From Eledone cirrhosa (Eukaryota), in the NCBI GenBank assembly GCA_964016885.1, contig OZ024743.1, positions 368,466,001-368,530,000 of the forward strand: a stretch of DNA of 64,000 nt, in the 5' to 3' direction. Every line of letters begins with the position of its first letter. Position 1 is the first letter of the stretch. The notes beneath the pieces are model-generated. The model was not told the origin of the DNA. It worked only from the letters and a program-made list of their open reading frames with translations, and searched no databases. This document shows, in pieces, positions 6,877 to 56,020 of the stretch. The translations under genes were made by a program, and so were the position numbers.

Positions 6877-7005
6877 GTATATATATATATATATGTATAT
6901 ATATATGTATATGTATATATATATATATGTTATATTATGTATATATATATATATATGTATATATATGTATATATATATGTGTGTATATATATGTATATAT
7001 ATATA

Positions 7006-7036
<31 letters not shown>

Positions 7037-7180
7037 GTATATGTGTGTATATATATGTATATATATATATATATGTATATGTGTGTATATATATGTATAT
7101 ATATATATATATGTATATGTGTGTATATATATGTATATATATATATATATGTATATGTGTGTATATATATGTATATATAT

Positions 7181-10100
7181 ACAATCCATATTTCGTATCA
7201 AGTCCAAATAGCCAATCTATCGCTAAAACAAACTACATTTTCTGTTTCTATTAATTGCTAAATACGTAGGTTTTTGGACGTATTTAACAGAACAAATTTT
7301 GTATTTTTGTTAATCGCTTGTTAAATGCATGGACCCCACTCAATCATTACCTTCTTGCTAGCTACCCAACACCCCTCCCTCCCACCCCCACGCACCACCA
7401 TTGCTATTACGTGGACCAATCATAAAACAGAGCCCCCACGCATCACCAGTATTATTACGCGGACCAATCAGAAACCAGAGGCCTATACTATCGCTTGCCT
7501 GGTTGCCTTTCGATATACGATATATGATGGTTGGATGGACTGCGGAATCCTGGAGAGTGGAGGTGAGAGAGAAAAATCTGGACGCTCAGCGACAATGCCA
7601 AAGATAAAGACAAATTCACCTCTTGGACGAGAATGCGAGCACTCCTCATTGTTTCGACCGCGGACGGCTAACATAACCCCATCGCCCCCCGCCCCTCACC
7701 GCCCCCAACCCCCAAACGCAATCCAAAACCTCAGAGTTGGTACCATAAATGTAGGCACCCTAAAGGGTCGCGCTAACGAGGTTGTAGAAATGCTTGAACG
7801 TAAGGAGGTCGATGTTTGTTGTATTCAAGAGACCAGGTGGAGGGGTGGGTCTGCTAGGTTCATTGAGGGTAAAAAACGATGTTATAAGCTTTTCTGGGTG
7901 GGAAACGACGATGGGCTGGGTGGAGTAGGAATCATGGTAGCAGAAAAGTGGGCAGATAAGATAATAGACGTAAATAGAGTGAACGACAGAATAATTAAAA
8001 TACGACTTGTCCTCAATAGAACTACGGTGACAGTAATATCTGCGTACGCACCCCAATCCGGACTGCCCGACACTATAAAAGACAGATTCTATGAGACACT
8101 GATGCTAACTACCTCCCAAATATCCGACAGTGACTATATAATTATCGCAGGCGACCTAAATGGTCACGTTGGACAACATTGTGATGGCTACGACGAAATC
8201 CATGGAGGCTATGGGTTTGGTACTAGAAATGAGGAAGGCTCCAGAATCCTGGAATTCTGTGATGCAAATAACCTAACTATCTGTAACACTAACTTCAAAA
8301 AACGTGACAATCACCTGATCACCTATAGATCCGGGAACACACAAGCCAGGTAGATTATATCCTTACCAGAAGACGTGACAGAGTGTCTGTTGTAAACACT
8401 AAATCCCTCCCCCATGAAGAATGCACCTCCCAACATAGACTGATAATTAGCGACCTCATAGTCAGGACGAGACGTACTCGACAACAGAAGAGGACTATCC
8501 TCAGGAGGAAAATATGGAAGCTAAAGGACCCCACAGCCAGGAATAAATTTCAAAGCATATTACTTGATGCTTTCGACAGTAAGGAAGAACATTTAGAATC
8601 GGACAATATAGAGGGAGAGTGGGAATTTCTGAAAGCAAACCTGCTGTTGGCGACAGACGAAGTCTGTGGCTGGAGCAGGCCTGTAGGCAGGAGGAGAGTA
8701 ACATGGTGGTGGAACAGTAAGGTGGAGGGGTCAATTAAGGCCAAAAAGCAGGCTTGGAAAGTATGGCGGGATGGGGGAAGTAGAGAGGACTATCAAGTGG
8801 CCAGGAGGGAAGCTAGGAGACAAGTGTACTTAGCAAGAAGGGAAGCTGAGGAAAGAAAGTTCAAGCATGTTCTACAACGCGATGACCAAAAACGTGAGGT
8901 GTTCAGGATTGCTAGGCAATGCGTCAAGGAAAACCGTGATATTGTCGGGGAGAAGTGTGTACTAAACGACGATGGCACACTTGCCATCACCGACGCTGAT
9001 AAGAAGGTAGCTTGGAAGTGTCACTATGAAAGGCTACTAAATGAGGAGAATAATTGGGAGAAAGGCAGTCTCCCCCATATCGACCCAATAGAGGGACCAG
9101 CAGTGTTAGTCGAGGGGAGTATAATAAGTAAGGCAATCAAGGATATGAAGACTGGTAAGGCGGCTGGGCCTTCGGAAATAGTTGCTGAGATGCTGAAGGC
9201 ATCTGGCACGGTGGGACACACCATGGTCACCCGCATAGTTAACCAAGTTGTACAGAATGGGGTTGTTCCGAAGGACTGGCATAGCAGCATCATCGTTAAC
9301 TGTTATAAGGGTAAAGGAGACGCCCTAGATAGGAGTAACTATAGAGGCATTAAATTAATCGACCAGGTCATGAAGGTCACGGAAAAAGTAATAGCGCAAC
9401 TAATCAGAGAGAGAATTGACCTAGATGAAATGCAGTTCGGGTTTGTGTCAGGCAAAAGTACCACAGACGCTCTTTTCATAGTACGACAACTACAGGAGAA
9501 GTACCTAGCTAAAGGTAAACCCCTCTACTTAGCTTTTGTCGACTTGGAGAAAGCCTTCGACAGAGTCCCCCGCTCCATTATCTGGTGGGCTCTTAGAAAA
9601 CTAGGCGTTGACGAATGGCTTGTGAGAGCTATACAAGCCATGTATAAAGAAACAGTCAGCAAGGTTAGAATTAACAACGAATATAGTGAAGAGTTTAGCG
9701 TAAAAGTTGGCGTCCATCAGGGCTCTGTTCTCAGTCCACTACTATTTATTATTGCCCTTCAGGCTATAACAGAGGAGTTCAAGACAGGCTGCCCATGGGA
9801 ACTCCTATACGCAGACGACCTGACACTCATAGCGGAATCAATGGCCGAGCTAGAGAAGAAATTCCAAACATGGAAGCACGGCCTAGAGTCAAAAGGCCTT
9901 AAAATTAACCTGGCTAAGACCAAAGTACTAGTTTGTAGGAAAGAAAACAAGGCGGCGGTCCCTTCTGGGAAATGGTCGTGCTCGGTGTGTAGGAAAGGCG
10001 TAGGTAGAAACTCCATTTTATGTCCTAAATGCAAAGTATGGGTGCATAAAAGATGTAGTGGGATCACAGGTAAGCTAACTAAGAACATAGATTTTTACAT

Positions 10101-11164
10101 GTGGCCGGTGCTCTGGTGCAATAAGTAGCAGCAAGTGCCCACAAACTACTAGCTCTTTCAAATGCGCAGAGGGTTCTATAGAAATAGTGGACAGCTTCCG
10201 TTACCTGGGCGATAAAATCAGCAGTGGGGGAGGGTGCTCTGAAAGTACTGTAGCTAGAGTCAGAACTGGTTGGAAAAAGTTCAGAGAGCTTATACCACTA
10301 TTAGCTGCTAAAGGGTTCTCACTAAAAATGAAAGGCAGGTTGTACGATGCCTGCATACGAACAGCAATGCTGCATGGCAGTGAGACCTGGGCATTGTGTG
10401 CAGAGGATATACGCAGACTAGAGAGGAACGAAGCTTGCATGCTCCGCTGGATGTGTAACAGTAATATACGTGAACGGCAAAGCATAAACGAACTAAGGAA
10501 AAAATTAGAGATAAGAGGGATCAGATGTTGTTTACTCGAGAGAAGGCTACGTTGGTATGGACACGTGATGCGCATGAAAGTCGATAGCTGTATAACAAAG
10601 TGCAGGGCAATAAAGATAGACGGTAGTCACGGAATAGGCAGACCTAGAAAAACCTGGGACGAGCTGATAAACTCCGACATCACACACTTACACCTCTCCA
10701 AGACAATGTCACTGGACCGAGACCTTTGGCGGTACTCAGTAACAGAGAAGACCCGCCTTACCTAAATATATAGTAAAACCTACTCCAGCCAGTAGGCATC
10801 TCTAACAAAATACACCCCGTCCCACCACCCCCACCCCCACCCGATCCACACCACCCCGTTCTATGTAAAGTTATGTTGGTGCCGCGCCATCGAGGCCGAA
10901 ACAAATGAGATCGTGTAGGTGTCACGACAAAAAAACACACAGTCCACGCTGTAATGTGGCCGTGTAGGCAACACGGTAAAAACCTCCCAGACCCACACTG
11001 TAAATGTGGTTGGTGTTAGGAAGGGCATCCAACTGTAGAAAACCTGCCAGACAGTCCTATGCGAGCAAGACAATCACTCTTGCTTCAAGTGGGACTACCC
11101 CCGTCCAAACCCATGCAAGCGTGGAACACGGACGTTAAACGTTGATGATGATGATGATGATGAT
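7181..11164 (+). mobile_element. RTE LINE family A (subtype A2), near full-length, frameshifted
   Basis: 5' UTR matches ~44703-45048; ORF split into three pieces; (GAT)n tail. Confidence 0.95.
7595..10765 (+). pseudogene. RTE APE-RT ORF disrupted by two 1-bp homopolymer indels (~8335, ~10095)
   Basis: ORF pieces ending 8353, 8383-10128 and 10187-10765 are collinear with the intact 45049-48285 ORF; CCGGGAAC vs CCGGGGAAC and GATTTTTAC vs GATTTTAC. Confidence 0.88.
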
Positions 11165-14862: not shown

Positions 14863-17175
14863 AACTTTGAAATGTTTTGGCCAGTATTGGCCCAGGCCAT
14901 GTCTAACTTAATAGCACCACCTGGCGAAGTCTTTCAATTCAGGATTTGGGCACCATGGCCCATTCGAGAAGAGAATTACTGTTTGCGGAGACATATCCGG
15001 GTGTGGGTGGTTTGTCCGGGATTACTTGGAGGAATTTGTCCAAAGACTTCTTGAATTTTGAGTGGTCAGTTTCTGTTTTGACGTGTCCTGGTGTGATGTT
15101 GAAGAGAGCAGGGCCGATTGAGGTGAAATAATTGTGCCGTATTGTTGTTATGAGTTGCGATTTAGATTTTTGAATGGGACGGATAGCACGGGGCCCAAGC
15201 CTTGGGTGTATCTTGAAGGCGATGTCAACATCATTTGGGCAGTGATGATGGAACATTTTCCACATCATGCAGATAATATAACGCTCACGGCGACGTTGGA
15301 GTGAGTAAAGTTTCAGGTTTTCCAATCGACCCCAGTAGTCAAGGTCTGACATGCCATCTATCTTTTTCGTGATTGCCCTTTGAGGAGCTTCAAGTTTCAT
15401 GATACTTTGTTTCGTGTGGGGAGACCACAGTGGACAACAGTATTCAAGGTGTGGTCGGGCGAAAGAAGAGAAGGATAATGGTGTGGGAATCTCTCGACTG
15501 GAAGGTTCTGAGGATCCAGGAACACATTCTGCGGGCCATGTCAACTTTGCTGCTTATATGCGTGGTCCAGCTTATGTTGCTGTCCACGGTTACTCCCAAG
15601 TCTCTGATGTTGTTAGATGCCACGAGAGTTTCCCCGGAGGGAAGGGAGTACGGGAGTTTCAGAGCATCCTCTTTTCCAAAGTGGATCAGTTCGAATTTGT
15701 CCTCGTTCAGTAACATGTTGTTCTTTTCTGCCCATTGGGTAACAGCCAGTAGGTCTGACTGAAGGCTTATCCGGTCATCCACGCCATTGATGACCTTTTG
15801 GAGCTTGGAATCATCAGCGAAAATTTTAATGTTGCTGTGTTTGATGATGTCAGTGATGTCATTAATATAGATGATGAAGAGAAGTGGGCCCAACACAGTG
15901 CCTTGTGGGACTCCACTACTGACTTTGGCTGGGCTTGATTTGACTCCCTCAACTACAACATGTTGGGTTCTGTTTGACAGGAAGCTCTTGATCCACTGCA
16001 GCAGCTTTCCAGTGACACCAATATTGGACAGCTTTCTCAGTAGAATGTTATGATCAACCCTGTCAAAGGCCTTGCTGAAATCAAGGTAGATAACATCAGT
16101 GTTGGAACCCTCTCCCAAGGCTCTCAAAATGTCATCAAAGTGATGCAGTAGTTGCGTCAGGCAATCCCTTCCATTACGGAATCCATGCTGGTTGGAGTTC
16201 AGCATATTGTTACTCTCAAGGAAGTGGGTCATTCGCGATCTCACCACTCGCTCAAATACCTTAATGATATGAGAGGTGAGTGAGATTGGACGGTAATTCA
16301 CGGCAAGGGATTTGTTTCCCTTTTTGAAAACTGGGACAACAGACTGGGATAGAAGGTTTTCTGGCACATATCCAGCATCCAGTGAGTTCCGCCACAGATT
16401 GGCAAGAGGAGAAGCAAGTTGGTGTTGACACGCCTTCAGGACACAAGCAGGGAACCTATCAGGACCTACTGCTGAATTATGCTTCATTTCCTTTATTGCC
16501 GCCAAGACATCAGGGGCGCCAAACGTTATGTCCGATAAGGTGTAATGGGGAGTAACATCGCCGATACAGCCCAGATCGGCCATATCAGGATTGCTGAAAA
16601 CAGAGCAGTATTGTTTCTGCAGTATCTCACCCATGGTTTTAGCATTGTCTTGAAGAGGGCCAACAGTAGAGCCAGTGATTTTGTGTTTTTTTGCAAATGA
16701 AAAGAACACTTTGGGATTGAGTTTGATCTTCTCAATGGCCCAGGCCTCTTCAGCTCTTCTCTGATTGTTGATGAGGGACATTATGTTGTTTTGGAGGTTA
16801 TGTTTTTTAATCTCTAGTGATGAAATGGCAGTCAAGTTGATGTGTTGCTGCTGACAGTATTTCAGCTTGTTTATTTTTTTGTTCGTTCTCTTAATTTTCC
16901 TGATGAGCGTTTTTCTATTTCTAGGGATTCTGCTCTTAGATTTGTTTATAGTTCTTAATGGGGTGTGTTTAGCACATATGTTTGTAACAGTGTCCACAAA
17001 TGTCTGCCAGGACTTTTTGATGTTAGTGGGTGTATGAGTGTGCGTGAAGGACCAGTCGACATGTGCAAGATCATGACTGATCGCTTCCCAGTTTGCATTG
17101 TGGAAATCCATAGCGTCAAACGGATGGACAGGAGAGATGACATTGGGTTTGTATATTGGACGGTGGAATCTCAGA
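14863..17175 (-). mobile_element. CR1-type LINE, 5'-truncated, RT frameshifted near 15460
   Basis: [35 protein letters not shown] and FADD motifs, then [14 protein letters not shown] in another frame; short 3' UTR running into (TA)n. Confidence 0.88.
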
Positions 17176-17191
17176 TATATATATATATATG

Positions 17192-17254
<63 letters not shown>

Positions 17255-17255
17255 G

Positions 17256-17286
<31 letters not shown>

Positions 17287-17343
17287 GTATATATATATAT
17301 GTATATATATATATGTATATATATATATGTATATATATATATG

Positions 17344-17388
<45 letters not shown>

Positions 17389-17413
17389 GTATATATATGT
17401 ATATATATATATG

Positions 17414-17460
<47 letters not shown>

Positions 17461-17461
<1 letters not shown>

Positions 17462-17678
17462 AGTATGTATGTATACGTACATACATATATGTATATATAT
17501 ATATATGTATATATATATATAAGTATGTATGTATACGTACATACATATATGTATATATATATATATGTATATATGTATATGTAAGTATGTATGTATACGT
17601 ACATACATATATGTATATATATATATATGTATATATGTATATGTAAGTATGTATGTATACGTACATACATATATGTAT
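17461..17678. repeat. ~60-62-bp AT-rich minisatellite, 4 copies
   Basis: AAGTATGTATGTATACGTACATACATAT recurs at 17461, 17521, 17583 and 17645. Confidence 0.85.
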
Positions 17679-18172
17679 ATCATCATCATCATCATCATCA
17701 TCAGGTTTAGCGTCCGTGTTCCACGCTTGCATGGGTTTGGACGGGGGTTTTCCCACTTGAGGCAAGAGTGGTTGTCTTGCTCGCATAGGACTGTCTGGCG
17801 GGTTTTCTACAGTTGGATGCCCTTCCTAACACCAACCACATTTACAGTGTGGGGCTGGGAGGTTTTTACCGTGTTGCCTACACGGCCACATTACAGCGTG
17901 GACTGTCTGGCGGGTTTTCTACAGCTGGATGCCCTTCCTAACACCAACCACATTTACAGTGTGGGGCTGGGAGGTTTTTACCGTGTTGCCTACACGGCCA
18001 CATTTACAGCGTGGACTGTGTGTTTTTTGTCGTGACACCTACACGATCTCATTTGTTTCGGCCTGGATGTTGTGGGACCAACATAACTTTACATTGAAAG
18101 GGGCGGTGTGGAGGGACGGGGGTGTGTTTTGATAGAGGTGCCTACTGACTGTAGTAGGTTTTTACTTTGTAT

Positions 18173-21100
18173 TTAGGTAAGGCGGGTCTTCTCTATTACT
18201 GAGTACCGCCAAAGGTCTCGGTCCAGTGACATTGTCTTGGAGAGGTGTAAGCGTGTGAGGTCGGAATTTATCAGCTCGTCCCATGTTTTTCTGGGTCTGC
18301 CTACTCCGTGGCTACCGTCTATCTTTATTGCCCTGCACTTTGTTATACAGCTGTCGTCTTTCATGCGCATCACGTGACCGTACCAACGTAGCCTTCTCTA
18401 GAGTAAACAACATCTGATCCCTCTTATTTCTAATTTTTTCCTTAGTTCGTTTATGCTTTGCCGTTCACGTATATTACTATTGCACATCCAGCGGAGCATG
18501 CAAGCTTCGTTCCTCTCTAGTCTGCGTATATCCTCTGCACACAATGCCCAGGTCTCACTGCCATGCAGCATTGCTGTTCGTATGCAGGCATCGTATAACC
18601 TGCCTTTCATTTTTAGGGAGAACCCTCTAGCGGCTAATAGTGGTATAAGCTCTCTGAACTTTTTCCATCCAGTTCTGACTCTAGCTACTGTACTTTCAGA
18701 GCACCCTCCCCCACTGCTGATTTTGTCACCCAGATAACGGAAGCTGTCCACTATTTCTATAGAACCCTCTGCGCAGTTGAAGGAGCTAGTATTTTGTGGG
18801 CACTTGCTGCTACTTATTGCACCAGAGCACCGGCCACATGTAAAATCTATGTTCTTAGTTAGCTTACCTGTGATCCCACTACATCTTTTATGCACCCATA
18901 CTTTGCATTTGGGACATAAAATGGAGTTTCTACCTACGCCTTTCCTACACACTGAGCATGGCCATTTCCCCGATGGGACCGCCGCCTTATTTTCTTTCCT
19001 ACAAACTAGAACTTTAGTCTTAGCCAGGTTAATTTTAAGGCCTTTTGATTCTAGGCCGTGCTTCCACGTTTGGAATTTCTTCTCTAGTTCGGTCATTGAT
19101 TCAGCTATGAGCGTTAGATCATCTGCGTATAGGAGTTCCCATGGGCAGCCGGTCTTGAACTCCTCTGTTATAGCCTGAAGGGCAATAATAAATAGTAGGG
19201 GGCTAAGTACAGAGCCCTGATGGACACCAACTTTTACGCTAAACTCTTCACTATATTCGTTGTTAATTCTAACCTTACTGACTGTTTCTTTATACATGGC
19301 TTGTATAGCTCTCACAAGCCATTCGTCAACACCTAGTTTTCTAAGAGACCACCAGATAATGGAACGGGGGACTCTGTCGAAGGCTTTCTCCAAGTCGACA
19401 AAAGCTAAGTATAGGGGTTTACTTTTAGCTAGGTACTTCTCCTGTAGTTGTCGTACAATGAAAAGAGCGTCTGTGGTACTTTTGCCTGACACAAACCCGA
19501 ACTGCATTTCATCTAGATCAATTCTCTCTCTGATTAGTTGCGCTATTACTTTTTCCGTGACCTTCATGACCTGGTCGATTAATTTAATGCCTCTATAGTT
19601 ACTCCTATCTAGGGCATCTCCTTTTCCCTTATAGCAGTTAACGATGATGCTGCTACGCCATTCCTTCGGAACAACCCCATTCTGTACGACTTGGTTAACT
19701 ATCCGGGTGACCATGGTGTGTCCCACCGAACCAGATGCCTTCAGCATCTCAGCAACTATTTCCGAAGGCCCAGCCGCCTTACCCGTCTTCATATCTTTGA
19801 TTGCCTTACTTATTATACTACCTTCAACTAACACTGCTGGTCCCTCTATTGGATCGATCTGGGGGAGACTGTCTTTCTCCCATTTGTTCTCCTCATTTAG
19901 AAGCCTTTCGTAGTGACACTTCCAAGCTACCTTCTTATCAGCGTCGGTGATGGCAAGTATGCCATCATCGTTAAGTACACACTTCTCCCCGACAATATCA
20001 CGGTTTTCCTTGACACATTGCCTGGCAATCCTGAACACCTCACGTTTTTGGTCCTCACGTTGTAGAACATGCTTGAACTTTCTTTCCTCTGCTTCCCTTC
20101 TTGCGAAGTACACTTGTCTCCTAGCTTCCCTCCTGGCCACTTGATAGTCTTCTCTACTTCCCCCATCCCGCCATACTTTCCAAGCCTGCTTTTTGGCCTT
20201 AATTGACTCCTCCACCTTACTGTTCCACCACCATGTTACTCTCCTCCTACCTACAGGCCTGCTCCAGCCACAGACTTCGTCTGCCGCCGTCAGCAGGTTT
20301 GCTCTCAGGAATTCCCACTGTTCCTCTATATTATACGACTCTAATTGCTCTTCCTTACTGTCGAAAGCGTCAAGTAATTTGCTTTGAAATTTATTTCTGG
20401 CTATGGGGTCCTTTAGCTTCCATATTTTTCTCCTGAGGATAGTCCTCTTTCGCTGTCTAGTACGTCTCGTCCTGACTATGAGGTCGCTAATTATCAGTCT
20501 ATGTTGGGAGGTGAATTCTTCATGGGGGTGGGATTTAGTGTTAACAACAGACACTCTGTCACGTCTTCTGGTAAGGATATAATCTACCTGGCTTGTGTGT
20601 TCCCCCGATCTATAGGTGATCAAGTGATTGTCTCGTTTTTTGAAGTTAGTGTTACAGATAGTTAAGTTATTTGCGTCGCAGAATTCCAGGATTCTGGAGC
20701 CTTCCTCATTTCTAGTACCGAACCCATAGCCTCCATGGATTCCGTCATAGCCGTCACAATGTTGTCCAACGTGACCATTTAGGTCGCCTGCAATAACTAT
20801 ATAGTCACTGTCGGTTATTTGGGAGGTAGCGAGCATCAGTGTCTCGTAGAATCTGTCTTTTATAGCGCGGGGCTGTCCGGATTGGGGTGCGTACGCAGAT
20901 ATTACTGTCACCGTAGTTTTATTGAGGACAAGTCTTATTTTAATTATTCTGTCGTTCACTCTATTTACGTCTATTATCTTATCTGCCCACTTTTCTGCTA
21001 CCATGATTCCTACCCCACCCAACCCATTGTCATTTCCCACCCAGAAAAGCTTATAGCATCGCTCTTTACCCACGATGAATCTAGCCGACCCTCCCCTCCA

Positions 21101-21421
21101 CCTGGTCTCTTGAATACAACAAACATCGACCTCCTTACGTTCAAGCATTTCTACAACCTCGTTAGAGCGACCCTTTAAGGTGCCTACATTCATGGTACCA
21201 ACTCTGAAGTTTTGGATTGCGTTTGGAGGGTGGGAGCGGTGGGGCGCGGGGGGGGGGGATGGGGTTATGTTAGCCATCCTGGGCCGAAACAAGGAGGAGT
21301 GCTTGCATTCTCGTCCACGAGGTGAATTTGGCTTTATCTTTGACATTGTCGCTGAGCGTCCACATTTTTCTCTCTTCAACTCTCCAGAATTCCGTAGTCC
21401 ATCCATCATATCGAAAAGCAA
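18173..21421 (-). pseudogene. RTE APE-RT-PHD ORF with a premature stop at 18398-18400
   Basis: 1007-aa ORF ends at ...RCCLL, where siblings continue ERRLRW (GAG>TAG); the remaining C-terminus is still present to 18173. Confidence 0.9.
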
Positions 21422-21550
21422 CCAGTTAAGCGATAGTATGGGCCTCTGACTTATGATTGGTCCACGTAATAATGGTGGTGCGTGGGGGCGGGAGGGAGGG
21501 ATGATGGGTTGTTAGCGAGAATGTAAGGTTTAAGATAAGATCGCCGTATT

Positions 21551-22358
21551 TTGGGCATGATTTAACAATAAACGAAAATACAAGATTTGTTTTGTTTAAG
21601 AAATTACGATAGAGAAAATGCGGTGATAGGGGAAGTATGATTTTTAGAGAAAAGATATGATATATAATGGTGAAAATATGATATAGTGTGAAATTAGGAC
21701 ATAGAAGTGATTGAATGAATGGGTTCGGATGGAGAGAAGAATCGAGAAAGAAATTGGGCATAATTTAACAATAAACGAAAATACAAGATTTGTTTTGTTT
21801 AAGAAATTACGATAGAGAAAATGCGGTGATAGGGAAAATATGATTTTTAGAGAAAAGATATGATATATAATGGTGAAAATATGATATAGTGTGAAATTAG
21901 GACATAGGAGTGATTGAATGAATGGGTTCGGATGGAGAGAAGAATCGAGAAAGAAATTGGGCATAATTTAACAATAAACGAAAATACAAGATTTGTTTTG
22001 TTTAAGAAATTACGATAGAGAAAATGCGGTGATAGGGAAAATATGATTTTTAGAGAAAAGATATGATATATAATGGTGAAAATATGATATAGTGTGAAAT
22101 TAGGACATAGAAGTGATTGAATGAATGGGTTCGGATGGAGAGAAGAATCGAGAAAGAAATTGGGCATAATTTAACAATAAACGAAAATACAAGATTTGTT
22201 TTGTTTAAGAAATTACGATAGAGAAAATGCGGTGATAGGGGAAGTATGATTTTTAGAGAAAAGATATGATATATAATGGTGAAAATATGATATAGTGTGA
22301 AATTAGGACATAGAAGTGATTGAATGAATGGGTTCGGATGGAGAGAAGAATCGAGAAA
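21551..22358 (-). repeat. 203-bp tandem repeat x4 in the RTE 5' UTR
   Basis: TTGGGCAT unit starts at 21551, 21754, 21957 and 22160. Confidence 0.95.
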
Positions 22359-22536: not shown

Positions 22537-24877
22537 ATCATCATCATCATCATCATCGTTTAACGTCCATATTCCACGCTTGCATTGGTTTGGACGGGAG
22601 TTTTCCCACTTGAGGCAAGAGTGGTTGTCTTGCTCGCATAGGACTGTCTGGCGGGTTTTCTACAGTTGGATGCCCTTCCTAACACCAACAGTGTGGACTG
22701 TGTGTTTTTTTTGTCGTGACACCTACACAATCTCATTTGTTTCTGCCTGGAGTTTGTGGCACCAACATAACTTTACATTGAAAGGGGCGGTGTGGATGGG
22801 GTGGGATGGTGGGACGGGGTTGTATTTTGTTAGAGATGCCTACCGACTGTAGTAGGTTTTACTTTGTATTTAGGTAAGGCGGGTCTTCTGTATCGGTCCA
22901 GTGACATTGTCTTGGAGAGGTGTAAGTGTGTGAGGTCGGAATTTATCAGCTCGTCCCAGGTTTTTCTGGGTCTGCCTACTCCGTGGCTACCGTCTATCTT
23001 TATTGCCCTGCACTTTGCTATACAGCTGTCGTCTTTCATGCGCATCACGTGACCATACCAACGTAGCCTTCTCTCGAGTAAACAACATCTGATCCCTCTT
23101 ATTTCTAATTTTTTCCTTAGTTCGTTTATGCTTTGCCGTTCGCGTATATTACTATTACTCATCCAGCGGAGCATGCAAGTTTCGTTCCTCTCTAGTCTGC
23201 GTATATCCTCTGCACACAATGCCCAGGTCTCACTGCCATGCAACATTGCTGTTCGTATGCAGGCATCATACAACCTCCCTTTCATTTTTAGGGAGAACCC
23301 TTTAGCGGCTAATAGTGGTATAAGCTCTCTGAACTTTTTCCATCCAGTTCTGACTCTAGCTACTGTACTTTCAGAGCACCCTCCCCCACTGCTGATTTTG
23401 TCACCCAGGTAACGGAAGCTGTCCACTATTTCTATAGAACCCTCTGCACAATTGAAAGAGCTAGTATTTGTGGGCACTTGCTGCTACTGATTGCACCAGA
23501 GCACCGGCCACATGTAAAATCTGTGTTCTTAGTTAGCTTACCTGTGATCCCACTACATCTTTTATGCACCCATACTTTGCATTTGGGACATAAAATGAAG
23601 TTTCTACCTACGCCTTTCCTACACACTGAGCATGGCCATTTCCCGGAAGGGACCGGCGCCTTATTTTCTTTCCTACAAACTAGAACTTTAGTCTTAGCCA
23701 GGTTAATTTTAAGGCCTTTTGATTCTAGGCCGTGCTTCCATGTTTGGAATTTCTTCTCTAGCTCGGCCATTGATTCAGCTATGAGCGTTAGGTCATCTGC
23801 GTATAGGAGTTCCCATGGGCAGCCGGTCTTGAACTCCTCTGTTATAGCCTGAAGGGCAATAATAAATAGTAGGGGGCTAAGAACAGAGCCCTGATGGACA
23901 CCAACTTTTACGCTAAACTCTTCACTATATTCGTTGTTAATTCTAACCTTGCTGACTGTTTCTTTATACATGGCTTGTATAGCTCTCACAAGCCATTCGT
24001 CAACACCTAGTTTTCTAAGAGCCCACCAGATAATGGAACGGGGGACTCTGTCGAAGGCTTTCTCCAAGTCGACAAAGGCTAAGTATAGGGGTTTACTTTT
24101 AGCTAGGTACTTCTCCTGTAGTTGTTGTACAATGAAAATAGCGTCTGTGGTACTTTTGCCTGACACAAACCCGAACTGCATTTCATCTAGATCGATTCTC
24201 TCTCTGATTAGTTGCACTATTACTTTTTCCGTGACCTTCATGACCTGGTCGATTAATTTAATGCCTCTATAGTTACTCCTATCTAGGGCGTCTCCTTTAC
24301 CCTTGTAACAGTTAATGATGATGCTGCTACGCCAGTCCTTCGGAACAACCCCATTCTGTATGACTTGGTTTACTATCCGGGTGACCATGGTGTGTCCCAC
24401 CGTTCCAGAGGCCTTCAGCATCTCAGCGACTATTTCCGAAGGCCCAGCCGCCTTACCCGTCTTCATATCTTTGATTGCCTTACTTATTATACTACCTTCA
24501 ACTAACACTGCTGGTCCCTCTATTGGATCGATCTGGGGGAGACTATCCTTCTCCCATTTATTCTCCTCATTTAGTAGCCTGTCGTAATGACACTTCCAAG
24601 CGACCTTCTTATCAGCGTCAGTGATGGCGTGTACGCCATCATTATTTAGTACACACTTCTCCCCAACAATATCACGGTTTTCCTTCACACATTGCCTAGT
24701 TTTTGGTCCTCGCGTTGTAGAACATGCTTGAACTTTCTTTCCTCTGCTTCCCTTCTTGCGAAGTACACTTGTCTCCTAGCTTCCCTCCTGGCCACTTGAT
24801 AGTCTTCTCTACTTCCCCCATCCCGCCATACTTTCCAAGCCTGCTTTTTGGCCTTAATCGACTCCTCCACCTTACTG

Positions 24878-26391: not shown

Positions 26392-26812
26392 TGTATATAT
26401 ATCTATATATATAAAACTGTAGTGTGTGTGTGTGTATGTGTTTGTCCTCATTTTTGAAAAGTCTATACAAATCCACATTTCTACTCCAATTGACTTCAAA
26501 CTTGCATTTATATATTCCTTGTGGTCTAAAGATACTAACTGCAGCTTTTATTTTTCCATTTTGTGTTGTTAAAGGGGTGTTAGGCGCCGATTATCGATCT
26601 CCGTTGAGCCCTTATAATATCTGTGTGTATGTCTGGTTGTCTGCATAATGTCATTGCTGACGTATTATCATCGCTACATTCACACACATATACTTATATA
26701 TACATATATATATATACACATATATGCATTTTCACACACACATACATACACATATACTATATATATATATATATATACACATATACAAACTAATAAAAAT
26801 ATATGTATATTT

Positions 26813-26853
<41 letters not shown>

Positions 26854-26919
26854 GAAGAGAGAAGAAACATTTAGATATAATTAGTAATAAAATGTATCAT
26901 ACCTAAACTGTTCCTAAAT

Positions 26920-27007
26920 TCCTCGACTACGTAGTTTCGTGGCATAAACAAAAACAATATATCAAAGATATAGAGTCCTTGCGAGATCTGCCGACTTATC
27001 AAGAGGA
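26920..27007 (-). ncRNA. Type I hammerhead ribozyme, U3:A8 variant (H2 copy 1)
   Basis: Minus strand: UCCUC-UUGAUAA-GUCGGCA...UGCCAC-GAAA-CUACGUA-GUC-GAGGA. Confidence 0.8.
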
Positions 27008-27510
27008 TACCTCATTTTACTAGTCTCAAGAATGCGTCTACACGACGTGAGAAAGAATCCCAAAAGGCGGAGGGGGAGACAGTCACGCGATATAACGGTC
27101 GAGAAACAGAGCTAAACCTCTTATAACCACGAAGAAAATACCTTGGAGGCGGAGGGGGTATTCATATCGAGGCCGTAGAAGAGGTAGTGAAGAAGGCGAG
27201 AAGTATGAGTAATGGAAGCTTTCCAGTTGTCCCCACACTTCAAAGATTGCTCGACCAGAGGGAGTTATTAATATATTTAGAAACACACAGATACATGCGG
27301 ACACACACATATATACATGAATGCATCCGCACCCAACTGTGAGTTAAGGGTGCCAACTTCACCGATGTTGCTCAATGAATGACTGGGACAGACCAATTCA
27401 GTTTGAACCAGACTGAACCAGTATCAGAGTTAAAAATACATTATGAAGAGAGAAGAAACATTTAGATATAATTAGTAATAAAATGTATTATACCTAAACT
27501 GTTCCTAAAT

Positions 27511-27598
27511 TCCTCGACTACGTAGTTTCGTGGCATAAACAAAAACAATATATCAAAGATATAGAGTCCTTGCGAGGTCTGCCGACTTATCAAGAGGA
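27511..27598 (-). ncRNA. Type I hammerhead ribozyme (H2 copy 2)
   Basis: Same motif, 591 bp further along. Confidence 0.8.
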
Positions 27599-28101
27599 TA
27601 CCTCATTTTACTAGTCTCAAGAACGCGTCTACACGACGTGAGAAAGAATCCCAAAAGGCGGAGGGGGAGACAGTCACGCGATATAACGGTCGAGAAACAG
27701 AGCTAAGCCTCTTATAACCACGAAGAAAATACCACGGAGGCGGAGGGGGTATTCATATCGAGGCCGTAGAAGAGGTAGTGAAGAAGGCGAGAAGTATGAG
27801 TAATGGAAGCTTTCCAGTTGTCCTCACACTTCAAAGATTGCTCGACCAGAGGGAGTTATTAATATATTTAGAAACACACAGATACATGCGGACACACACA
27901 TATATACATGAATGCATCCGCACCCAACTGTGAGTTAAGGGTGCCAACTTCACCGATGTTGCTCAATGAATGACTGGGACAGACCAATTCAGTTTGAACC
28001 AGACTGAACCAGTATCAGAGTTAAAAATACATTATGAAGAGAGAAGAAACATTTAGATATAATTAGTAATAAAATGTATCATACCTAAACTGTTCCTAAA
28101 T

Positions 28102-28189
28102 TCCTCGACTACGTAGTTTCGTGGCATAAACAAAAACAATATATCAAAGATATAGAGTCCTTGCGAGGTCTGCCGACTTATCAAGAGGA
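28102..28189 (-). ncRNA. Type I hammerhead ribozyme (H2 copy 3)
   Basis: Same motif, 1182 bp further along. Confidence 0.8.
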
Positions 28190-28474
28190 TACCTCATTTT
28201 ACTAGTCTCAAGAACGCGTCTACACGACGTGAGAAAGAATCCCAAAAGGCGGAGGGGGAGACAGTCACGCGATATAACGGTCGAGAAACAGAGCTAAGCC
28301 TCTTATATATATATATACATACACATATATACATATTCACACACACATACATACACATATACTATATATATATATATATATATATACAAACACATATACT
28401 CATAGATATACCCATATACACATATATAAATATACACATAAAAATATATCTATACACACACACACACACACACA

Positions 28475-32666: not shown

Positions 32667-34059
32667 TATATATTTATATGTATATATATATATATCATCA
32701 TCATCATCATTTAACGCATATATATATATATCATCATCATCATCATTTTACATCAGCTTTTTCCTGCATGCAAGGGTGGGATATATATGTTTATATAAAT
32801 ATATATATCAACCTATTTGTATTTACCGTTGTTGTGGTATATGTATGGCCACTGCCTTCAGTCATTTTTCTTGGTGTCACACTTTACCTTTTGTGTTTAC
32901 TCTGGACGATAATGTATTAACTTCTCACTCCATTGAGTGCTTTGTGATTGTATTAAACAATTTGATTGTACATGCTATATTGCGGCTACAACTTTGATTC
33001 ATACCCAATATTGTGTATATATATATATGTGTGTGTGTGAGTGTGTGTATATATGTGTGTATGTGTGTATATATGCATACAAAGACATATATGGATGTAT
33101 ATACATATATATATATACACACACAAACACATACACATATGCATATATATACATGTATCTATATATTTATATATATGTTAAGTGCTTGAATATGGAAGGG
33201 CTCCTCTTCTGCTTAGTTTTTCATCACTGATAATACTAATTCATATAGGAAAGGTGCTTGATAAAATATTCTATGAAATGGGAATTTTACCAAAATCGTT
33301 ACTTATGTCGCTAGTATTGATTATTAATAATATATAACAATGATTAGTATTGTTCACTGAAGTCTATATTGATTTTTTCTTGTTTATATATTTGTTTGTG
33401 ATTTCATTAAAAAAAAAACCTACTTTAAAATAAACAAAAATAAAACTGTTGAGTTTCTCACAGCATGTGGCAAACTGATTTGGTCCTGAGACCTTTTTTG
33501 TCATCAAATAATGGTTATTTTGATGGTAATAATTATGGTTTTGTTCATGATAATTATAATTTTATTTATATAAATGAGCATTATAGTGATTGGCTCAATA
33601 ACATATTTCATTCTATCACTACAATGTCACAAATTTGCTTGGGAGAGGACACAGCCCATTGACTTTACCCCAATTTATAATGGGAAGGAAGAAAGACCAA
33701 GTTAACCCTGACAGGATTTTAACCCAGTACATAGCAGAACTAAAATACTGTAATACCGTTAGTTGAATTCTGTAGTGTCTCAATCAATGATAATAATAAT
33801 ATAGGCACAAATTTGGAAGAGAGATTAATTATTCTAGTAAATCAACCGCAAGTATTAACTAATAATACTAATGGCAATGGATAAATGTATAGTTAATATT
33901 TCTTTTAACAATATTTTAAGTCTTTCGGTGAAAAATGTTCAGGTGTACAGTAAGAGAGCTATTTGAAAAAAACACATCAACACTAGTTTGGTTTCCTTAC
34001 TAGCAAGGGTTGGATATTACATACATACGTATTTACATACATATGCCTATATATACATA

Positions 34060-34400
34060 TATATATATATAAATGGATGTAAAAATTATATATATATACA
34101 TATTTATGCATTCATAAAGTCACATGACACATAACAGACTCTATATATATTGTAATGTGTGTATATATATATATATATAAATGGATGAAAAAATTATATA
34201 TATATATACATATTTATGCATTCATAAAGTCACATGACACATAACTGACTCTATATATATTGTAATGTGTGTATATATATATATATAAATGGATGTAAAA
34301 ATTATATATATATATATATATACATATTTATGCATTCATAAAGTCACATGACACATAACTGACTCTATATATATTGTAATGTGTGTATATATATATATAA
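34060..34400. repeat. ~108-bp tandem repeat x3
   Basis: AAATGGATG at 34071, 34179 and 34287. Confidence 0.9.
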
Positions 34401-35631
34401 ACATATACTATCATAAATGTGTACTAATCATGCATACTGTAGATATCGCATACACAAATATAACCAAATACAAACACATACATACACCAACATACATATA
34501 AAATCGGACATTTACTCACTATCATGCACATACATGTGTGTGTGTGTGTATTCCTTTACAGGGTTCAGTTATTAGACTGATGTCATGCTGGCGAACTACC
34601 TTGTAAAAAATACATAAATATGATCAAGCTTAGTTGAATAGTCTACAGGGAATAAACTTAGTTTTCTTCAATGTTATACATAACATCTTAAATGTCACAT
34701 CATCATCATCATCATTGTTTAATGTCATTTTTCATCGCTAGTATATGTATCCAATTTATTTATAATTTCAGTTGTTGGTTTCTTTTCTAGATATCTCAAG
34801 ATTAATTTCCTTTTTTGTGATTTTCTTTTTGGCTTCCTAAACTGTTTTTATTTTTACCAATTTACAAGCAACCCATAGGTAGTTATTAAGAACTGGTATT
34901 GTTATGTTATAGTTGTTCATTTTTTAATAAAATTTATGAAGAGGAACATTGTTTTATATCTATTTGTTTTGTTTATTTTTCTTTCCTATTTTCTCAGCCA
35001 GCTTCTTGTTTTTGTTTTCACAGTAAACTGCTAGTAATTTTCACTACTGAGATCTTATTCTCTATCGAGTTGTGATAAACTGTCAGCTTAGTTTCCTAGA
35101 TTAATCTTTCATTGTTGATGCCATCCTCAAAGCTGCATTATATTTGCATTTGTGTTGCAGAGGAAAATTACTGATATCTAATATCCTGTCTGATATTGTT
35201 TTTTAAACTGTTCTTGCCAAACTTCTTTTGTTTTCACTCTAATTTGTATTTTTCTAGCTTTCAGATACTTTGGCAAATACTGTATTTGTTGTGCTTCTTT
35301 TTAAAATGTATCTTAGTCCATATATTTATATCAAAATCCTTTATGCATGAATGACTTCTAATGCCTGATTGTTTTAAACAATTGACATTCAATAGCCAAA
35401 AGTTCAACTCTAAGTCAGTCTTTGTTTCGTACTATCTTTTATATCCATTTATCTTTAATTTTCCACCTAGTTACAATATTTGCATTTAACCAGTTGTGAC
35501 ATCATATTGAGTATTTGTCAACCAAACTTATACAGCTTAAATTCAGTTATTAAAATCTTTTAAAATAGTTGCTTTTGTGGCATTTTGGCCATATTTCTGA
35601 AACTTGTAATGTACAAGTTTTGATGGATGTT

Positions 35632-45000: not shown

Positions 45001-45048
45001 CAGAGGCCTATACTATCGCTTGCCTGGTTGCCTTTCGATATATGATGG

Positions 45049-48000
45049 ATGGATGGACTGCGGAATCCTGGAGAGTGGAGGAGAGAGAGAGAAAAATCTG
45101 GACGCTCAGCGACAATGCCAAAGATAAAGACAAATTCACCTCTTGGACGAGAATGCGAGCACTCCTCATTGTTTCGACCGCGGACGGCTAACATAACCCC
45201 ATCGCCCCCCGCCCCCCACCGCCCCCAACCCCCAAATGCAATCCAAAACTTCAGAGTTGGTACCATAAATGTAGGCACCCTAAAGGGTCGCGCTAACGAG
45301 GTTGTAGAAATGCTTGAACGTAAGGAGGTCGATGTTTGTTGTATTCAAGAGACCAGGTGGAGGGGTGGGTCTGCTAGGTTCATTGAGGGTAAAAAACGAT
45401 GTTATAAGCTTTTCTGGGTGGGAAACGACGATGGGCTGGGTGGAGTAGGAATCATGGTAGCAGAAAAGTGGGCAGATAAGATAATAGACGTAAATAGAGT
45501 GAACGACAGAATAATTAAAATACGACTTGTCCTCAATAGAACTACGGTGACAGTAATATCTGCGTACGCACCCCAATCCGGACTGCCCGGCACTATAAAA
45601 GACAGATTCTATGAGACACTGATGCTAACTACCTCCCAAATATCCGACAGTGACTATATAATTATTGCAGGCGACCTAAATGGTCACGTTGGACAACATT
45701 GTGACGGCTACGACGAAATCCATGGAGGCTATGGGTTTGGTACTAGAAATGAGGAAGGCTCCAGAATCCTGGAATTCTGTGATGCAAATAACCTAACTAT
45801 CTGTAACACTAACTTCAAAAAACGTGACAATCACCTGATCACCTATAGATCCGGGGAACACACAAGCCAGGTAGATTATATCCTTACCAGAAGACGTGAC
45901 AGAGTGTCTGTTGTAAACACTAAATCCCTCCCCCATGAAGAATGCACCTCCCAACATAGACTGATAATTAGCGACCTCATAGTCAGGACGAGACGTACTC
46001 GACAGCAGAAGAGGACTATCCTCAGGAGAAAAATATGGAAGCTAAAGGACCCCACAGCCAGGAATAAATTTCAAAGCATATTACTTGATGCTTTCGACAG
46101 TAAGGAAGAACATTTAGAGTCGGACAATATAGAGGGAGAGTGGGAATTTCTGAAAGCAAACCTGCTGTTGGCGACAGACGAAGTCTGTGGCTGGAGCAGG
46201 CCTGTAGGCTGGAGGAGAGTAACATGGTGGTGGAACAGTAAGGTGGAGGGGTCAATTAAGGCCAAAAAGCAGGCTTGGAAAGTATGGCGGGATGGGGGAA
46301 GTAGAGAAGACTATCAAGTGGCCAGGAGGGAAGCTAGGAGACAAGTGTACTTAGCAAGAAGGGAAGCTGAGGAAAGAAAGTTCAAGCATGTTCTACAACG
46401 CGATGACCAAAAACGTGAGGTGTTCAGGATTGCTAGGCAATGCGTCAAGGAAAACCGTGATATTGTCGGGGAGAAGTGTGTACTAAACGACGATGGCACA
46501 CTTGCCATCACCGATGCTGATAAGAAGGTAGCTTGGAAGTGTCACTATGACAGGCTAATAAATGAGGAGAATAAATGGGAGAAAGACAGTCTCCCCCATA
46601 TCGACCCAATAGAGGGACCAGCAGTGTTAGTCGAGGGGAGTATAATAAGTAAGGCAATCAAGGATATGAAGACGGGTAAGGCGGCTGGGCCTTTGGAAAT
46701 AGTTGCTGAGATGCTGAAGGCATCTGGCACGGTGGGACACACCATGGTCACCCGCATAGTTAACCAAGTCGTACAGAATGGGGTTGTTCCGAAGGACTGG
46801 CATAGCAGCATCATCATTAACTGTTATAAGGCTAAAGGAGACGCCCTAGATAGGAGTAACTATAGAGGCATTAAATTAATCGACCAGGTCATGAAGGTCA
46901 CGGAAAAAGTAATAGCGCAACTAATCAGAGAGAGAATTGACCTAGATGAAATGCAGTTCGGGTTTGTGTCAGGCAAAAGTACCACAGACGCTCTTTTCAT
47001 AGTACGACAACTACAGGAGAAGTACCTAGCTAAAGGTAAACCCCTCTACTTAGCTTTTGTCGACTTGGAGAAAGCCTTCGACAGAGTCCCCCGCTCCATT
47101 ATCTGGTGGGCTCTTAGAAAACTAGGTGTTGACGAATGGCTTGTGAGGGCTATACAAGCCATGTATAAAGAAACAGTCAGCAAGGTTAGAATTAACAACG
47201 AATATAGTGAAGAGTTTAGCGTAAAAGTTGGCGTCCATCAGGGCTCTGTTCTCAGCCCCATACTATTTATTATTGCCCTTCAGGCTATAACAGAGGAGTT
47301 CAAGACAGGCTGCCCATGGGAACTCCTATACGCAGACGACCTGACACTCATAGCGGAATCAATGGCCGAGCTAGAGAAGAAATTCCAAACATGGAAGCAC
47401 GGCCTAGAGTCAAAAGGACTTAAAATTAACCTGGCTAAGACCAAAGTACTAGTTTGTAGGAAAGAAAACAAGGCGGCAGTCCCTTCTGGGAAATGGTCGT
47501 GCTCGGTGTGTAGGAAAGGCGTAGGTAGAAACTCCATTTTATGTCCCAAATGCAAAGTATGGGTGCATAAAAGATGTAGTGGGATCACAGGTAAGCTAAC
47601 TAAGAACATAGATTTTACATGTGGCCGGTGTTCTGGTGCAATAAGTAGCAGCAAGTGCCCACAAAATACTAGCTCTTTCAATTGCACAGAGGGTTCTATA
47701 GAAATAGTGGACAGCTTCCGTTACCTGGGCGATAAAATCAGCAGTGGGGGAGGGTGCTCTGAAAGTACAGTAGCTAGAGTCAGAACTGGATGGAAAAAGT
47801 TCAGAGAGCGTATACCACTATTAGCTGCTAAAGGGTTCTCCCTAAAAATGAAAGGCAGGTTGTACGATGCCTGCATACGAACAGCAATGCTGCATGGCAG
47901 TGAGACCTGGGCATTGTGTGCAGAGGATATACGCAGACTAGAGAGGAACGAAGCTTGCATGCTCCGCTGGATGTGTAACAGTAATATACGTGAACGGCAA

Positions 48001-48285
48001 AGCATAAACGAACTAAGGAAAAAATTAGAGATAAGAGGGATCAGATGTTGTTTACTCGAGAGAAGGCTACGTTGGTATGGACACGTGATGCGCATGAAAG
48101 TCGATAGCTGTATAACAAAGTGCAGGGCAATAAAGATAGACGGTAGTCACGGAATAGGCAGACCTAGAAAAACCTGGGACGAGCTGATAAACTCCGACAT
48201 CACACACTTACACCTCTCCAAGACAATGTCACTGGACCGAGACCTTTGGCAGTACTCAGTAACGGAGAAGACCCGCCTTACCTAA
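45049..48285 (+). CDS. Intact RTE ORF, 1078 aa: APE endonuclease + RT + PHD-type finger
   Basis: GTINV, QETRW, YAPQ, GDLNGH, VDYIL, SQHRL, DLEKAFD, QGSVLSP, YADD, C4HC3 finger, FRYLG and GRPRKTW all intact. Confidence 0.93.
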   Translation: MDGLRNPGEWRREREKSGRSATMPKIKTNSPLGRECEHSSLFRPRTANITPSPPAPHRPQPPNAIQNFRVGTINVGTLKGRANEVVEMLERKEVDVCCIQETRWRGGSARFIEGKKRCYKLFWVGNDDGLGGVGIMVAEKWADKIIDVNRVNDRIIKIRLVLNRTTVTVISAYAPQSGLPGTIKDRFYETLMLTTSQISDSDYIIIAGDLNGHVGQHCDGYDEIHGGYGFGTRNEEGSRILEFCDANNLTICNTNFKKRDNHLITYRSGEHTSQVDYILTRRRDRVSVVNTKSLPHEECTSQHRLIISDLIVRTRRTRQQKRTILRRKIWKLKDPTARNKFQSILLDAFDSKEEHLESDNIEGEWEFLKANLLLATDEVCGWSRPVGWRRVTWWWNSKVEGSIKAKKQAWKVWRDGGSREDYQVARREARRQVYLARREAEERKFKHVLQRDDQKREVFRIARQCVKENRDIVGEKCVLNDDGTLAITDADKKVAWKCHYDRLINEENKWEKDSLPHIDPIEGPAVLVEGSIISKAIKDMKTGKAAGPLEIVAEMLKASGTVGHTMVTRIVNQVVQNGVVPKDWHSSIIINCYKAKGDALDRSNYRGIKLIDQVMKVTEKVIAQLIRERIDLDEMQFGFVSGKSTTDALFIVRQLQEKYLAKGKPLYLAFVDLEKAFDRVPRSIIWWALRKLGVDEWLVRAIQAMYKETVSKVRINNEYSEEFSVKVGVHQGSVLSPILFIIALQAITEEFKTGCPWELLYADDLTLIAESMAELEKKFQTWKHGLESKGLKINLAKTKVLVCRKENKAAVPSGKWSCSVCRKGVGRNSILCPKCKVWVHKRCSGITGKLTKNIDFTCGRCSGAISSSKCPQNTSSFNCTEGSIEIVDSFRYLGDKISSGGGCSESTVARVRTGWKKFRERIPLLAAKGFSLKMKGRLYDACIRTAMLHGSETWALCAEDIRRLERNEACMLRWMCNSNIRERQSINELRKKLEIRGIRCCLLERRLRWYGHVMRMKVDSCITKCRAIKIDGSHGIGRPRKTWDELINSDITHLHLSKTMSLDRDLWQYSVTEKTRLT

Positions 48286-53868: not shown

Positions 53869-56020
<2,152 letters not shown>

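Follow-up and report, generated by a model that had tools for sequence, protein, structure and literature searches.

The locus described here raises the question of what kind of element leaves a short run of non-coding repeats, each with a candidate self-cleaving ribozyme, between two TA microsatellites, and what copied it there. The window, meaning the whole stretch of 64,000 nucleotides that was analysed, comes from contig OZ024743.1 of Eledone cirrhosa, whose genome comprises 3.0 Gb. Our preferred answer, which we consider reasonably probable, is that the array is a non-LTR retrozyme, likely copied into TA microsatellites by a Neptune RT-endonuclease and probably from a predicted 591-nt circular RNA. 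Circles as templates and Penelope-like elements (PLEs) as partners have been proposed in print, including by Li, Clavereau & Pollet 2026 (bioRxiv 10.64898/2026.07.22.740005; hereafter Li et al. 2026). In the papers cited here, the retrozyme mobiliser and the circular template are still hypotheses, and the PLE origin of tails, inversions and tandems is named as an open problem. The young retrozyme and the active Neptune family of this genome have matching insertion rules and contrasting 5′-end patterns, and such a matched pair makes these questions a defined in vitro test with one protein, two RNAs and two start sites.

The array and its hammerhead motifs

There are 2.47 head-to-tail units of 591 bp in the array, which extends from 26850 to about 28307 between TA tracts. 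At an offset of 591 bases, 859 of 867 positions are identical (26849-27715 compared with the sequence downstream), and the 8 mismatches leave the copies 99% alike. The initial annotation, which had described about 2.5 near-identical units in (TA)n, was thus accurate on this point. The insertion as a whole (26850..28307, minus strand) has a single orientation, is primed at the fixed 3′ end termed A below, and is 5′-truncated at unit position 276. Unit 1 (26850..27440, minus strand, 591 bp) adjoins this fixed end and has 5 differences from the commonest letters of the family, 4 of which are absent from all other sampled loci. Unit 2 (27441..28031, minus strand, 591 bp) has 2 such differences and serves as the reference, wherein q1-q591 correspond to window positions 27441-28031 on the plus strand and the cut lies at q75/76. 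Partial unit 3 (28032..28307, minus strand, 276 bp) has at its end a TTATA microhomology to the (TA)n-rich target tract on the right (28304..28454); the left tract occupies 26695..26849.

The unit is non-coding, in agreement with the lack of an RT or long ORF first noted, since no frame is open for more than 71 codons when it is read as a circle. The divisibility of 591 by 3 would permit an endless ORF on the circle, and this candidate is ruled out by 6-15 stops per frame and by the sizes of other subfamilies (585-595 bp). The GC content is 0.43, i.e. below 50%, and LTR organisation is absent, with units arranged head-to-tail only. A GCACCC...GGGTGC hairpin highlighted in the initial annotation does exist (27329-27353), but it is not a conserved part of the unit because its 3′ arm is missing from the older subfamily introduced below, as judged from the subfamily alignment. 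The view that the monomer is on the large side has to be given up, since 591 nt, although above the 170-400 nt given for retrozyme units by Cervera & de la Pena 2020 (PMC7229834), falls inside the 51-972 bp given by Li et al. 2026.

Each unit carries on the minus strand the motif UCCUC-UUGAUAA-(57-nt stem II domain)-GAAA-CUACGUAG-UC|GAGGA. The three representatives are spaced by 591 nt and span 26920..27007, 27511..27598 and 28102..28189, with predicted cuts at 26925|26924, 27516|27515 and 28107|28106, respectively. These are the positions at which minus-strand type I hammerheads with GUC sites had originally been placed, and there is likewise one motif per unit in other loci. In hammerhead 2, stem I is formed by 27598-27594 with 27515-27511, the UUGAUAA core (U3-A8) lies at 27593-27587, the extended stem II at 27586-27530, GAAA at 27529-27526 and the palindromic stem III at 27526-27517, all on the minus strand. 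The motif has the features of a type I hammerhead, namely a C3/U3-U-G-A-N-G8/A8-A core, GAAA, an NUH site (here GUC) and three stems, with 96.6% of cells paired. Its core is the rare U3-A8 variant of the C3-G8 pair, and the canonical CTGANGA is absent from both strands of the array. Stem II continues into the 57-nt helix domain, and stem III is a 10-nt palindrome whose self-duplex has an energy of -12.9 kcal/mol. An Rfam search of the window gave zero matches at gathering score; at E values up to 10 there was no hammerhead family, and there were only sub-threshold matches to microRNA hairpins.

The hammerhead stems are invariant and give no sign of covariation; there are 0 pairs with two-sided change, and 500 of 500 shuffles score as high. 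The stem II extension exhibits one-sided variation in 8 of 14 pairs. However, 0 of 50 ribozyme-forming positions differ between the young and old subfamilies, compared with 49 of 263 elsewhere in q1-318 (Fisher p 2e-4; p is 0.011 when the comparison is restricted to the 26 positions not covered by the search pattern). Decay of the ribozyme inside the old subfamily proceeds at about the rate seen in its surroundings, which indicates that selection acts on the transposing lineages.

The hammerhead strand folds far more stably than shuffled sequences (z -8.0; in a second comparison, -6.3 versus -1.9 for the opposite strand). By folding estimates, the active fold of the monomer lies 5-10 kcal/mol above the minimum. 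A long hairpin located directly 3′ of the cut (27446..27515, minus strand, with equivalents in units 1 and 3) stops just short of site A and is predicted to sequester the GAGGA strand of stem I. In a two-unit RNA, a double hammerhead is estimated to cost 5.8-13.5 kcal/mol above the minimum and two single ones 15.6-18.4 kcal/mol, and the former is favoured by 2.5-10 kcal/mol. Cleavage is thus predicted to take place in dimers, with poor folding of the monomeric ribozyme, and this modelled self-blocking of the monomer would set it apart from most animal retrozymes as described in the cited texts. For comparison, 1 of 9 Xenopus retrozyme dimers was reported to cleave in vitro (Li et al. 2026).

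The closest published parallels for this ribozyme are the minimal hammerheads of Cercyon PLEs from Schistosoma mansoni, for which the U3-A8 form of the C3-G8 pair has been described, and type I hammerheads that cleave as dimers (Cervera & de la Pena 2014, PMC4209133). The core covariation, the short stem I and a short stem III whose palindrome would permit a double hammerhead are common features, whereas the Eledone hammerhead resides in a non-coding tandem unit and has a much longer stem II domain.

A family with two fixed 3′ ends

There are 7,444 exact matches to the 24-nt core in the genome and 0 to its reversed control, and therefore the core is not a chance occurrence. Near-identical copies are found on at least seven contigs, and unit spacings in the family are 585-595 bp. 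Across the genome, the commoner form of the TA-to-A junction has 1,941 exact matches, and internal junctions between units number 4,671. These counts, together with a hammerhead in every unit and the lack of coding capacity of the unit, support the retrozyme identity that had been proposed. The expected dispersed multimers in TA tracts were also found, as evident from the 1,941 TA-to-A junctions and from (TA)3 adjoining 126 of 128 fixed ends. Unselected copies diverge from the commonest letters by a median of only 0.7%, and for 29 of 48 an identical counterpart over q5-140 exists. An older subfamily, sampled at 29 loci, is about 80% identical to the window copy and has about 4% internal divergence. 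Thus, the window array represents a single insertion belonging to a young, high-copy, non-coding family. In non-LTR retrozymes, target-site duplications exceed 4 bp when they occur; here a duplication is not readable, as the targets are TA tracts.

A gapped pattern aimed at relatives with shorter loops gave 22 matches, all of which are deletion variants of the retrozyme family. One deletion variant (G000:C4:341452716-341453348) has a far shorter stem II domain and is present as a 565-bp tandem, which indicates that the deletion was in the template.

The family resembles metazoan non-LTR retrozymes, as these are described in PMC7229834 and by Li et al. 2026, in being non-coding tandems with one type I hammerhead per unit, in reaching thousands of copies, and in having GC below 50%, no LTR features, a structured monomer and PLEs in the same genome. 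It therefore carries every defining feature of this class that a genome can reveal, with cleavage and the circle being predicted from sequence. Unlike the retrozymes in those texts, it has the U3-A8 core and the 57-nt extended stem II.

The array ends at a fixed 3′ end, A, at 26846..26853 (minus strand), with internal copies at 27437-27443 and 28028-28034. This end corresponds to q589-1, follows the cut by about 76 nt and meets (TA)n with 1-4 nt of microhomology. The initial annotation had predicted a common 3′ end (...CTTCATAAT), which is indeed found family-wide, but it is one of two. The second, B, lies at q420-424, 170 nt beyond A (27860..27866, also 27269-27275, minus strand); it serves about half of the family's arms and is unused in the window copy, which is an A-only insertion. 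The 170-nt tail between A and B (27862..28031, also 27271-27440, minus strand) is structured, although two-sided changes between the subfamilies occur in only 4 of 48 pairs, i.e. there are few compensatory changes.

The use of these ends was examined at 89 loci, comprising 50 loci on contig C1 (all those in the first 100 core matches listed there, with one duplicated copy dropped) and 39 near-identical loci, of which 38 came from a similarity search and 1 was met separately. There are 44 single-orientation copies, 26 ending at A and 18 at B (L148, among the latter, is internally rearranged), and 45 head-to-head copies. Both outer ends fall on A or B in 40 of these 45, and each of the 40 is A+B (p ~2e-13 under independent end choice); the remaining 5 have one or both ends elsewhere. 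The old subfamily has 17 A+B copies among 21 inverted ones, 4 with one other end and no AA or BB; here B was located by eye, at q420-434, and the query was biased towards copies that contain B. Pooled over both subfamilies, all 57 of 57 head-to-head insertions with ends at A or B have one of each. Inspection by eye found no facing A junctions within 5 kb among the first 100 A junctions listed. Palindrome instability was considered as a cause of the missing AA and BB forms and rejected, as the inverted arms of A+B copies are equally long.

The two arms of an insertion also resemble each other in sequence. Among the inverted loci, 33 offer at least 100 positions for comparison between the arms; minor alleles are common to both arms in 25 of these, and in 9 of the 33 the partner arm is the closest, with no other sampled arm as close; the remaining loci are too young to tell or are tied. 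In eight loci, the arms share variants found in no other sampled locus. An apparent exception, 15 cross-arm differences at L065, proved to be one deletion. Both arms are therefore from one haplotype, which is compatible with one RNA molecule and with one dominant source locus.

These data also bear on the possibility that monomers were inserted first and were later expanded into tandems at their insertion sites through unequal crossover, in the manner of a minisatellite. This scenario is discussed by Li et al. 2026, and it would account for the near-identity of tandem units within loci. However, it sits poorly with a fixed 3′ start, a random in-register 5′ end and non-integer sizes, with multi-unit arms on both sides of inversions, and with cross-arm divergence equal to that within arms (11/7656 versus 9/6995 at L123), such that we consider it highly improbable.

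Several of these traits are hallmarks of PLE mobilisation, namely two internal 3′ ends bounding a tail, a tail at one end of inverted copies, and 5′ truncation. One-sided tails and inverted copies are known for PLEs (PMC8557442; PMC3846280), and the PLE tail has been tied in vitro to two RT start sites (PMC11167929). As described in these three papers, Neptune-clade PLEs share with the Eledone family 5′ truncation, partial tandems, an inverted 5′-truncated copy, a tail restricted to one end, AT-rich targets, a pair of internal RT start sites that delimit the tail and a hammerhead upstream of them. Unlike Neptune PLEs, the retrozyme has no ORF, and its arms can be several units long. Its tail of 170 nt also exceeds the 30-40 nt of published PLEs. 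The tail at one end, termed 'often' present or 'optional' for PLEs in print, is strict here (57/57 for the retrozyme and 19/19 for the Neptune family N1). Two fixed ends with head-to-head copies are not described for retrozymes in the texts of Cervera & de la Pena and of Li et al. In the portions of the literature that we covered, there is no precedent for a cephalopod family or for retrozyme tails, nor for a 170-nt tail, a strict per-insertion A+B count or the 5′-end contrast presented below; Repbase, Dfam and supplements may hold the family or the rule.

Candidate partners among Neptune elements

A search for GIY-YIG domains gave 10,596 candidates, of which 150 were scored and 50 stretches read. 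Several of the 150 are RT-GIY-YIG frames with a CX4CxxC linker, a mark of the Neptune clade, whose linker is defined as CX2-5CxxC (PMC8557442). The nearest named relatives of one PLE protein of this genome are from bivalve molluscs. The family termed N1 has an RT, the CX4CxxC linker and, at the C terminus, a GIY-YIG domain, and belongs to Neptune by domain order and linker motif. Its hammerhead core is also U3-A8, with 11,180 exact core matches (626 for a second family, N2), and 33 other copies are identical over 701 bp of the ORF, which indicates that N1 is active now.

Copies of N1 end at 81 and 149 nt after the N1 cut, giving a tail of 68 nt. The spacing of the first end is thus 81 nt, versus about 76 nt in the retrozyme, and the second end (...TTTCTAATATATA) has a B motif similar to that of the retrozyme (...TTTCTAAATATAT). 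Among 40 N1 regions taken in C1 order, 19 are A′+B′, 17 are single, 3 have one other end and 1 is an apparent BB. The last (L203) consists of two separate insertions, and hence there is no true AA or BB in the 40 regions. N1 and the retrozyme therefore have in common the U3-A8 core, the TA target, the spacing of A, a similar B motif and the A+B rule.

There is no corresponding evidence from sequence homology. Comparison of the unit with the terminal repeats of 49 PLE loci gave best matches of 14-25 nt, with E values of 0.14 or worse outside CA/TG-rich stretches. No PLE frame abuts any of 51 truncated 5′ ends, where only two distant matches were found, and the layout of an autonomous PLE (an RT and GIY-YIG ORF between terminal repeats) is absent from the unit and from these 51 ends. 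The link to Penelope-like elements suggested in the initial annotation thus receives support from geometry and behaviour that match those of N1, but none from the sampled terminal repeats. N1 is the best candidate but not the sole one. Mobilisation by Neptune-type machinery is very likely, and N1 is its most likely source, with the chances about evenly divided between N1 and other Neptune families.

One possibility is that the unit is itself the terminal repeat of an unsampled coding PLE, and that the arrays are its truncated copies. The order of hammerhead, A, tail and B matches a Neptune terminal repeat, and the candidates scored and read form a small part of the 10,596. However, the next unit, and not the end of an ORF, lies 5′ of a unit, the 51 truncated ends are devoid of abutting PLE frames, and no ORF exceeds 71 codons. 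We therefore regard this as a very remote prospect. The initial annotation saw danger in a unit occurring at a single locus or only as the pLTR of a coding element, and the 7,444 core matches contradict the former, while the latter was not encountered at the 51 ends.

Alternatively, other machinery might be responsible, such as the APE-RT LINEs of the window, which holds seven APE/RT LINE frames, or a Naiad element, Naiads being known to favour (TA)n and to occur in cephalopods (PMC8557442). This is hardly credible, because the retrozyme lacks a poly(A) or a 3′ microsatellite of its own, and because the two-site tail and the head-to-head form are PLE traits common to N1. In addition, Naiads are described in the same paper as lacking canonical hammerheads.

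Similar to non-autonomous Chlamys PLEs such as MRC1 (PMC8557442), the Eledone family would be a non-coding passenger of PLEs with multicopy head-to-tail insertions. However, those elements share 3′ sequence with their partner, whereas the retrozyme shares only geometry and short motifs with N1 and, unlike the metazoan retrozymes of the cited texts, is not homologous to the terminal repeat of any sampled PLE. Moreover, the Chlamys PLE clade is described as having no canonical hammerheads, and the Eledone unit has one.

There are at least four Neptune families with hammerhead-like motifs (L071, L119, L097, L099, L104), three with U3-A8 and one with C3-G8. Among the U3-A8 families, one has GCAA in place of GAAA and one has an extra base before GAAA. 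Each of the families apparently has its own pair of 3′ ends. At L046:3808-3935, a miniature A′+B′ insertion of N1 adjoins a retrozyme 5′ end with almost no TA between them. A co-insertion of the two was rejected, as the N1 piece is itself a complete A′+B′ insertion.

The RNA template and neighbouring repeats

The inner ends of N1 insertions are strongly clustered, with 34 of 67 falling within 19 nt that lie 25-30 nt downstream of a TATA box; a single one of the 67 is at the cut. These observations indicate that the template of N1 is linear, uncut RNA, copied as far as its probable start, in keeping with the anole Poseidon data cited below, and suggest that the hammerhead of the PLE has not cut by the time of reverse transcription. 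Many N1 copies (L191-L230, L101) are tiny head-to-head insertions in which both arms stop 25-30 nt after the TATA box. They contain the uncut hammerhead and provide a genomic map of the start site.

The retrozyme arms are different, in that their densest 19-nt window holds 9 of 67 inner ends (versus 34 of 67 for N1; Fisher p 6e-6). The 67 are unselected arms, after exclusion of arms that start elsewhere and of 5 loci that lie at a contig edge, are rearranged or are too old. More than one unit is present in 31 of them, the longest being 2,902 nt, or about five units. The cut is crossed by 122 of 135 arms, and there is 1 indel near the cut among 221 spanning segments. A linear monomer template, for which arm ends should pile up at the cut, was rejected since 4 of 132 ends lie within q70-80 versus 2.5 expected. 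Arms stop 2-3 times more often within q241-330, a zone close to two GC-box-like motifs and a TATA-like word, and this rise could reflect a diffuse start zone. The GGCGGAGGGGG words occur twice per unit (27652-27665 and 27739-27751, +/-591) beside the TATA-like word and are conserved in the older subfamily; the paired words and the TATA-like word form a possible promoter in the same zone where arms stop more often.

The initial annotation had attributed both ends of the array to read-around reverse transcription of a circle. Read-around copying is supported at the level of the family but not by the window locus alone, in which the left end is a fixed RT start site and not a random point. Overall, a circular RNA template is the reading towards which we incline, although the conservation of the hammerhead is no proof of a circle, since N1 retains its hammerhead despite being copied from uncut RNA, and in vitro the protein of anole Poseidon has a preference for uncut RNA (Frangieh et al. 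2024, PMC11167929).

Perhaps the template is instead an uncut linear multimer, or several RNAs joined by template jumps, with Neptune driving the copying and the hammerhead rarely cutting or acting as a protein-binding or processing signal. The N1 copies derived from uncut RNA, the in vitro activity of anole Poseidon, which needs no cleavage (PMC11167929), the predicted poor folding of the active hammerhead and the raised termination at q241-330 near the promoter-like words would all fit. However, a sharp pile-up at a start site, as seen for N1, is missing. Multimers would also need rebuilding in each generation, given that the longest sampled arms are about five units, and haplotypes ranging from 80% to 100% identity each have their own tandems. 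For template jumps, the single indel near the cut in 221 segments indicates that there are no end-to-end jump scars. On these grounds we consider the uncut multimer rather unlikely, though it is the main rival, with a circular template as the preferred reading.

The preferred process may be outlined as follows. A tandem copy would be transcribed on the hammerhead strand, and adjacent hammerheads are predicted to pair via the palindromic stem III, to cut after GUC and to release the monomer. A host ligase would close the monomer, and the long hairpin after the cut would prevent the circle from being cut again. Judging from the insertion ends, the Neptune protein would nick both strands of a TA tract, and cDNA would be primed at fixed RNA sites on one template, at A on one strand and at B on the other. 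Each polymerase would then continue around the circle beyond the ligated cut, over a distance that varies at random. Finally, the two arms would join head-to-head (A+B), or one arm would be joined to the far TA tract (A-only as in the window, or B-only); genomic products of both kinds are seen. A bolder version, which we put forward tentatively and somewhat doubt, has a Neptune dimer on one circle, with two-site priming, which would always leave one end with a tail and one without, and with both subunits rolling independently, whereas the enzyme would copy its own RNA, linear and uncut, no further than the transcription start. If true, one process would underlie the PLE tail, the head-to-head inversion and the tandem units, and there would be genomic evidence for retrozyme circles as templates of a named and still active partner.

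Contigs from four sequencing runs of unknown kind include, in two runs, the unit as a self-closing contig of unit length plus 30. Such contigs are also expected from genomic tandems and are thus uninformative on expression or on a circle.

Other repeats share the window with the array. There are near-full-length LINE frames encoding an APE endonuclease, an RT and a C-terminal PHD finger at 3724-7197, 7325-10765 and 15444-21511, and further such frames at 23432-24775, 45046-48285 and 50767-53907, each of them located between long TA tracts. Four 203-bp tandem units that are 98% alike (21551-22358) adjoin the upstream side of the minus-strand LINE frame that ends at 21511 and may be repeated 5′ monomers of this LINE. 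In addition, about three 114-bp tandem units occupy a TA tract at 34048-34407, with no hammerhead core discernible by eye.
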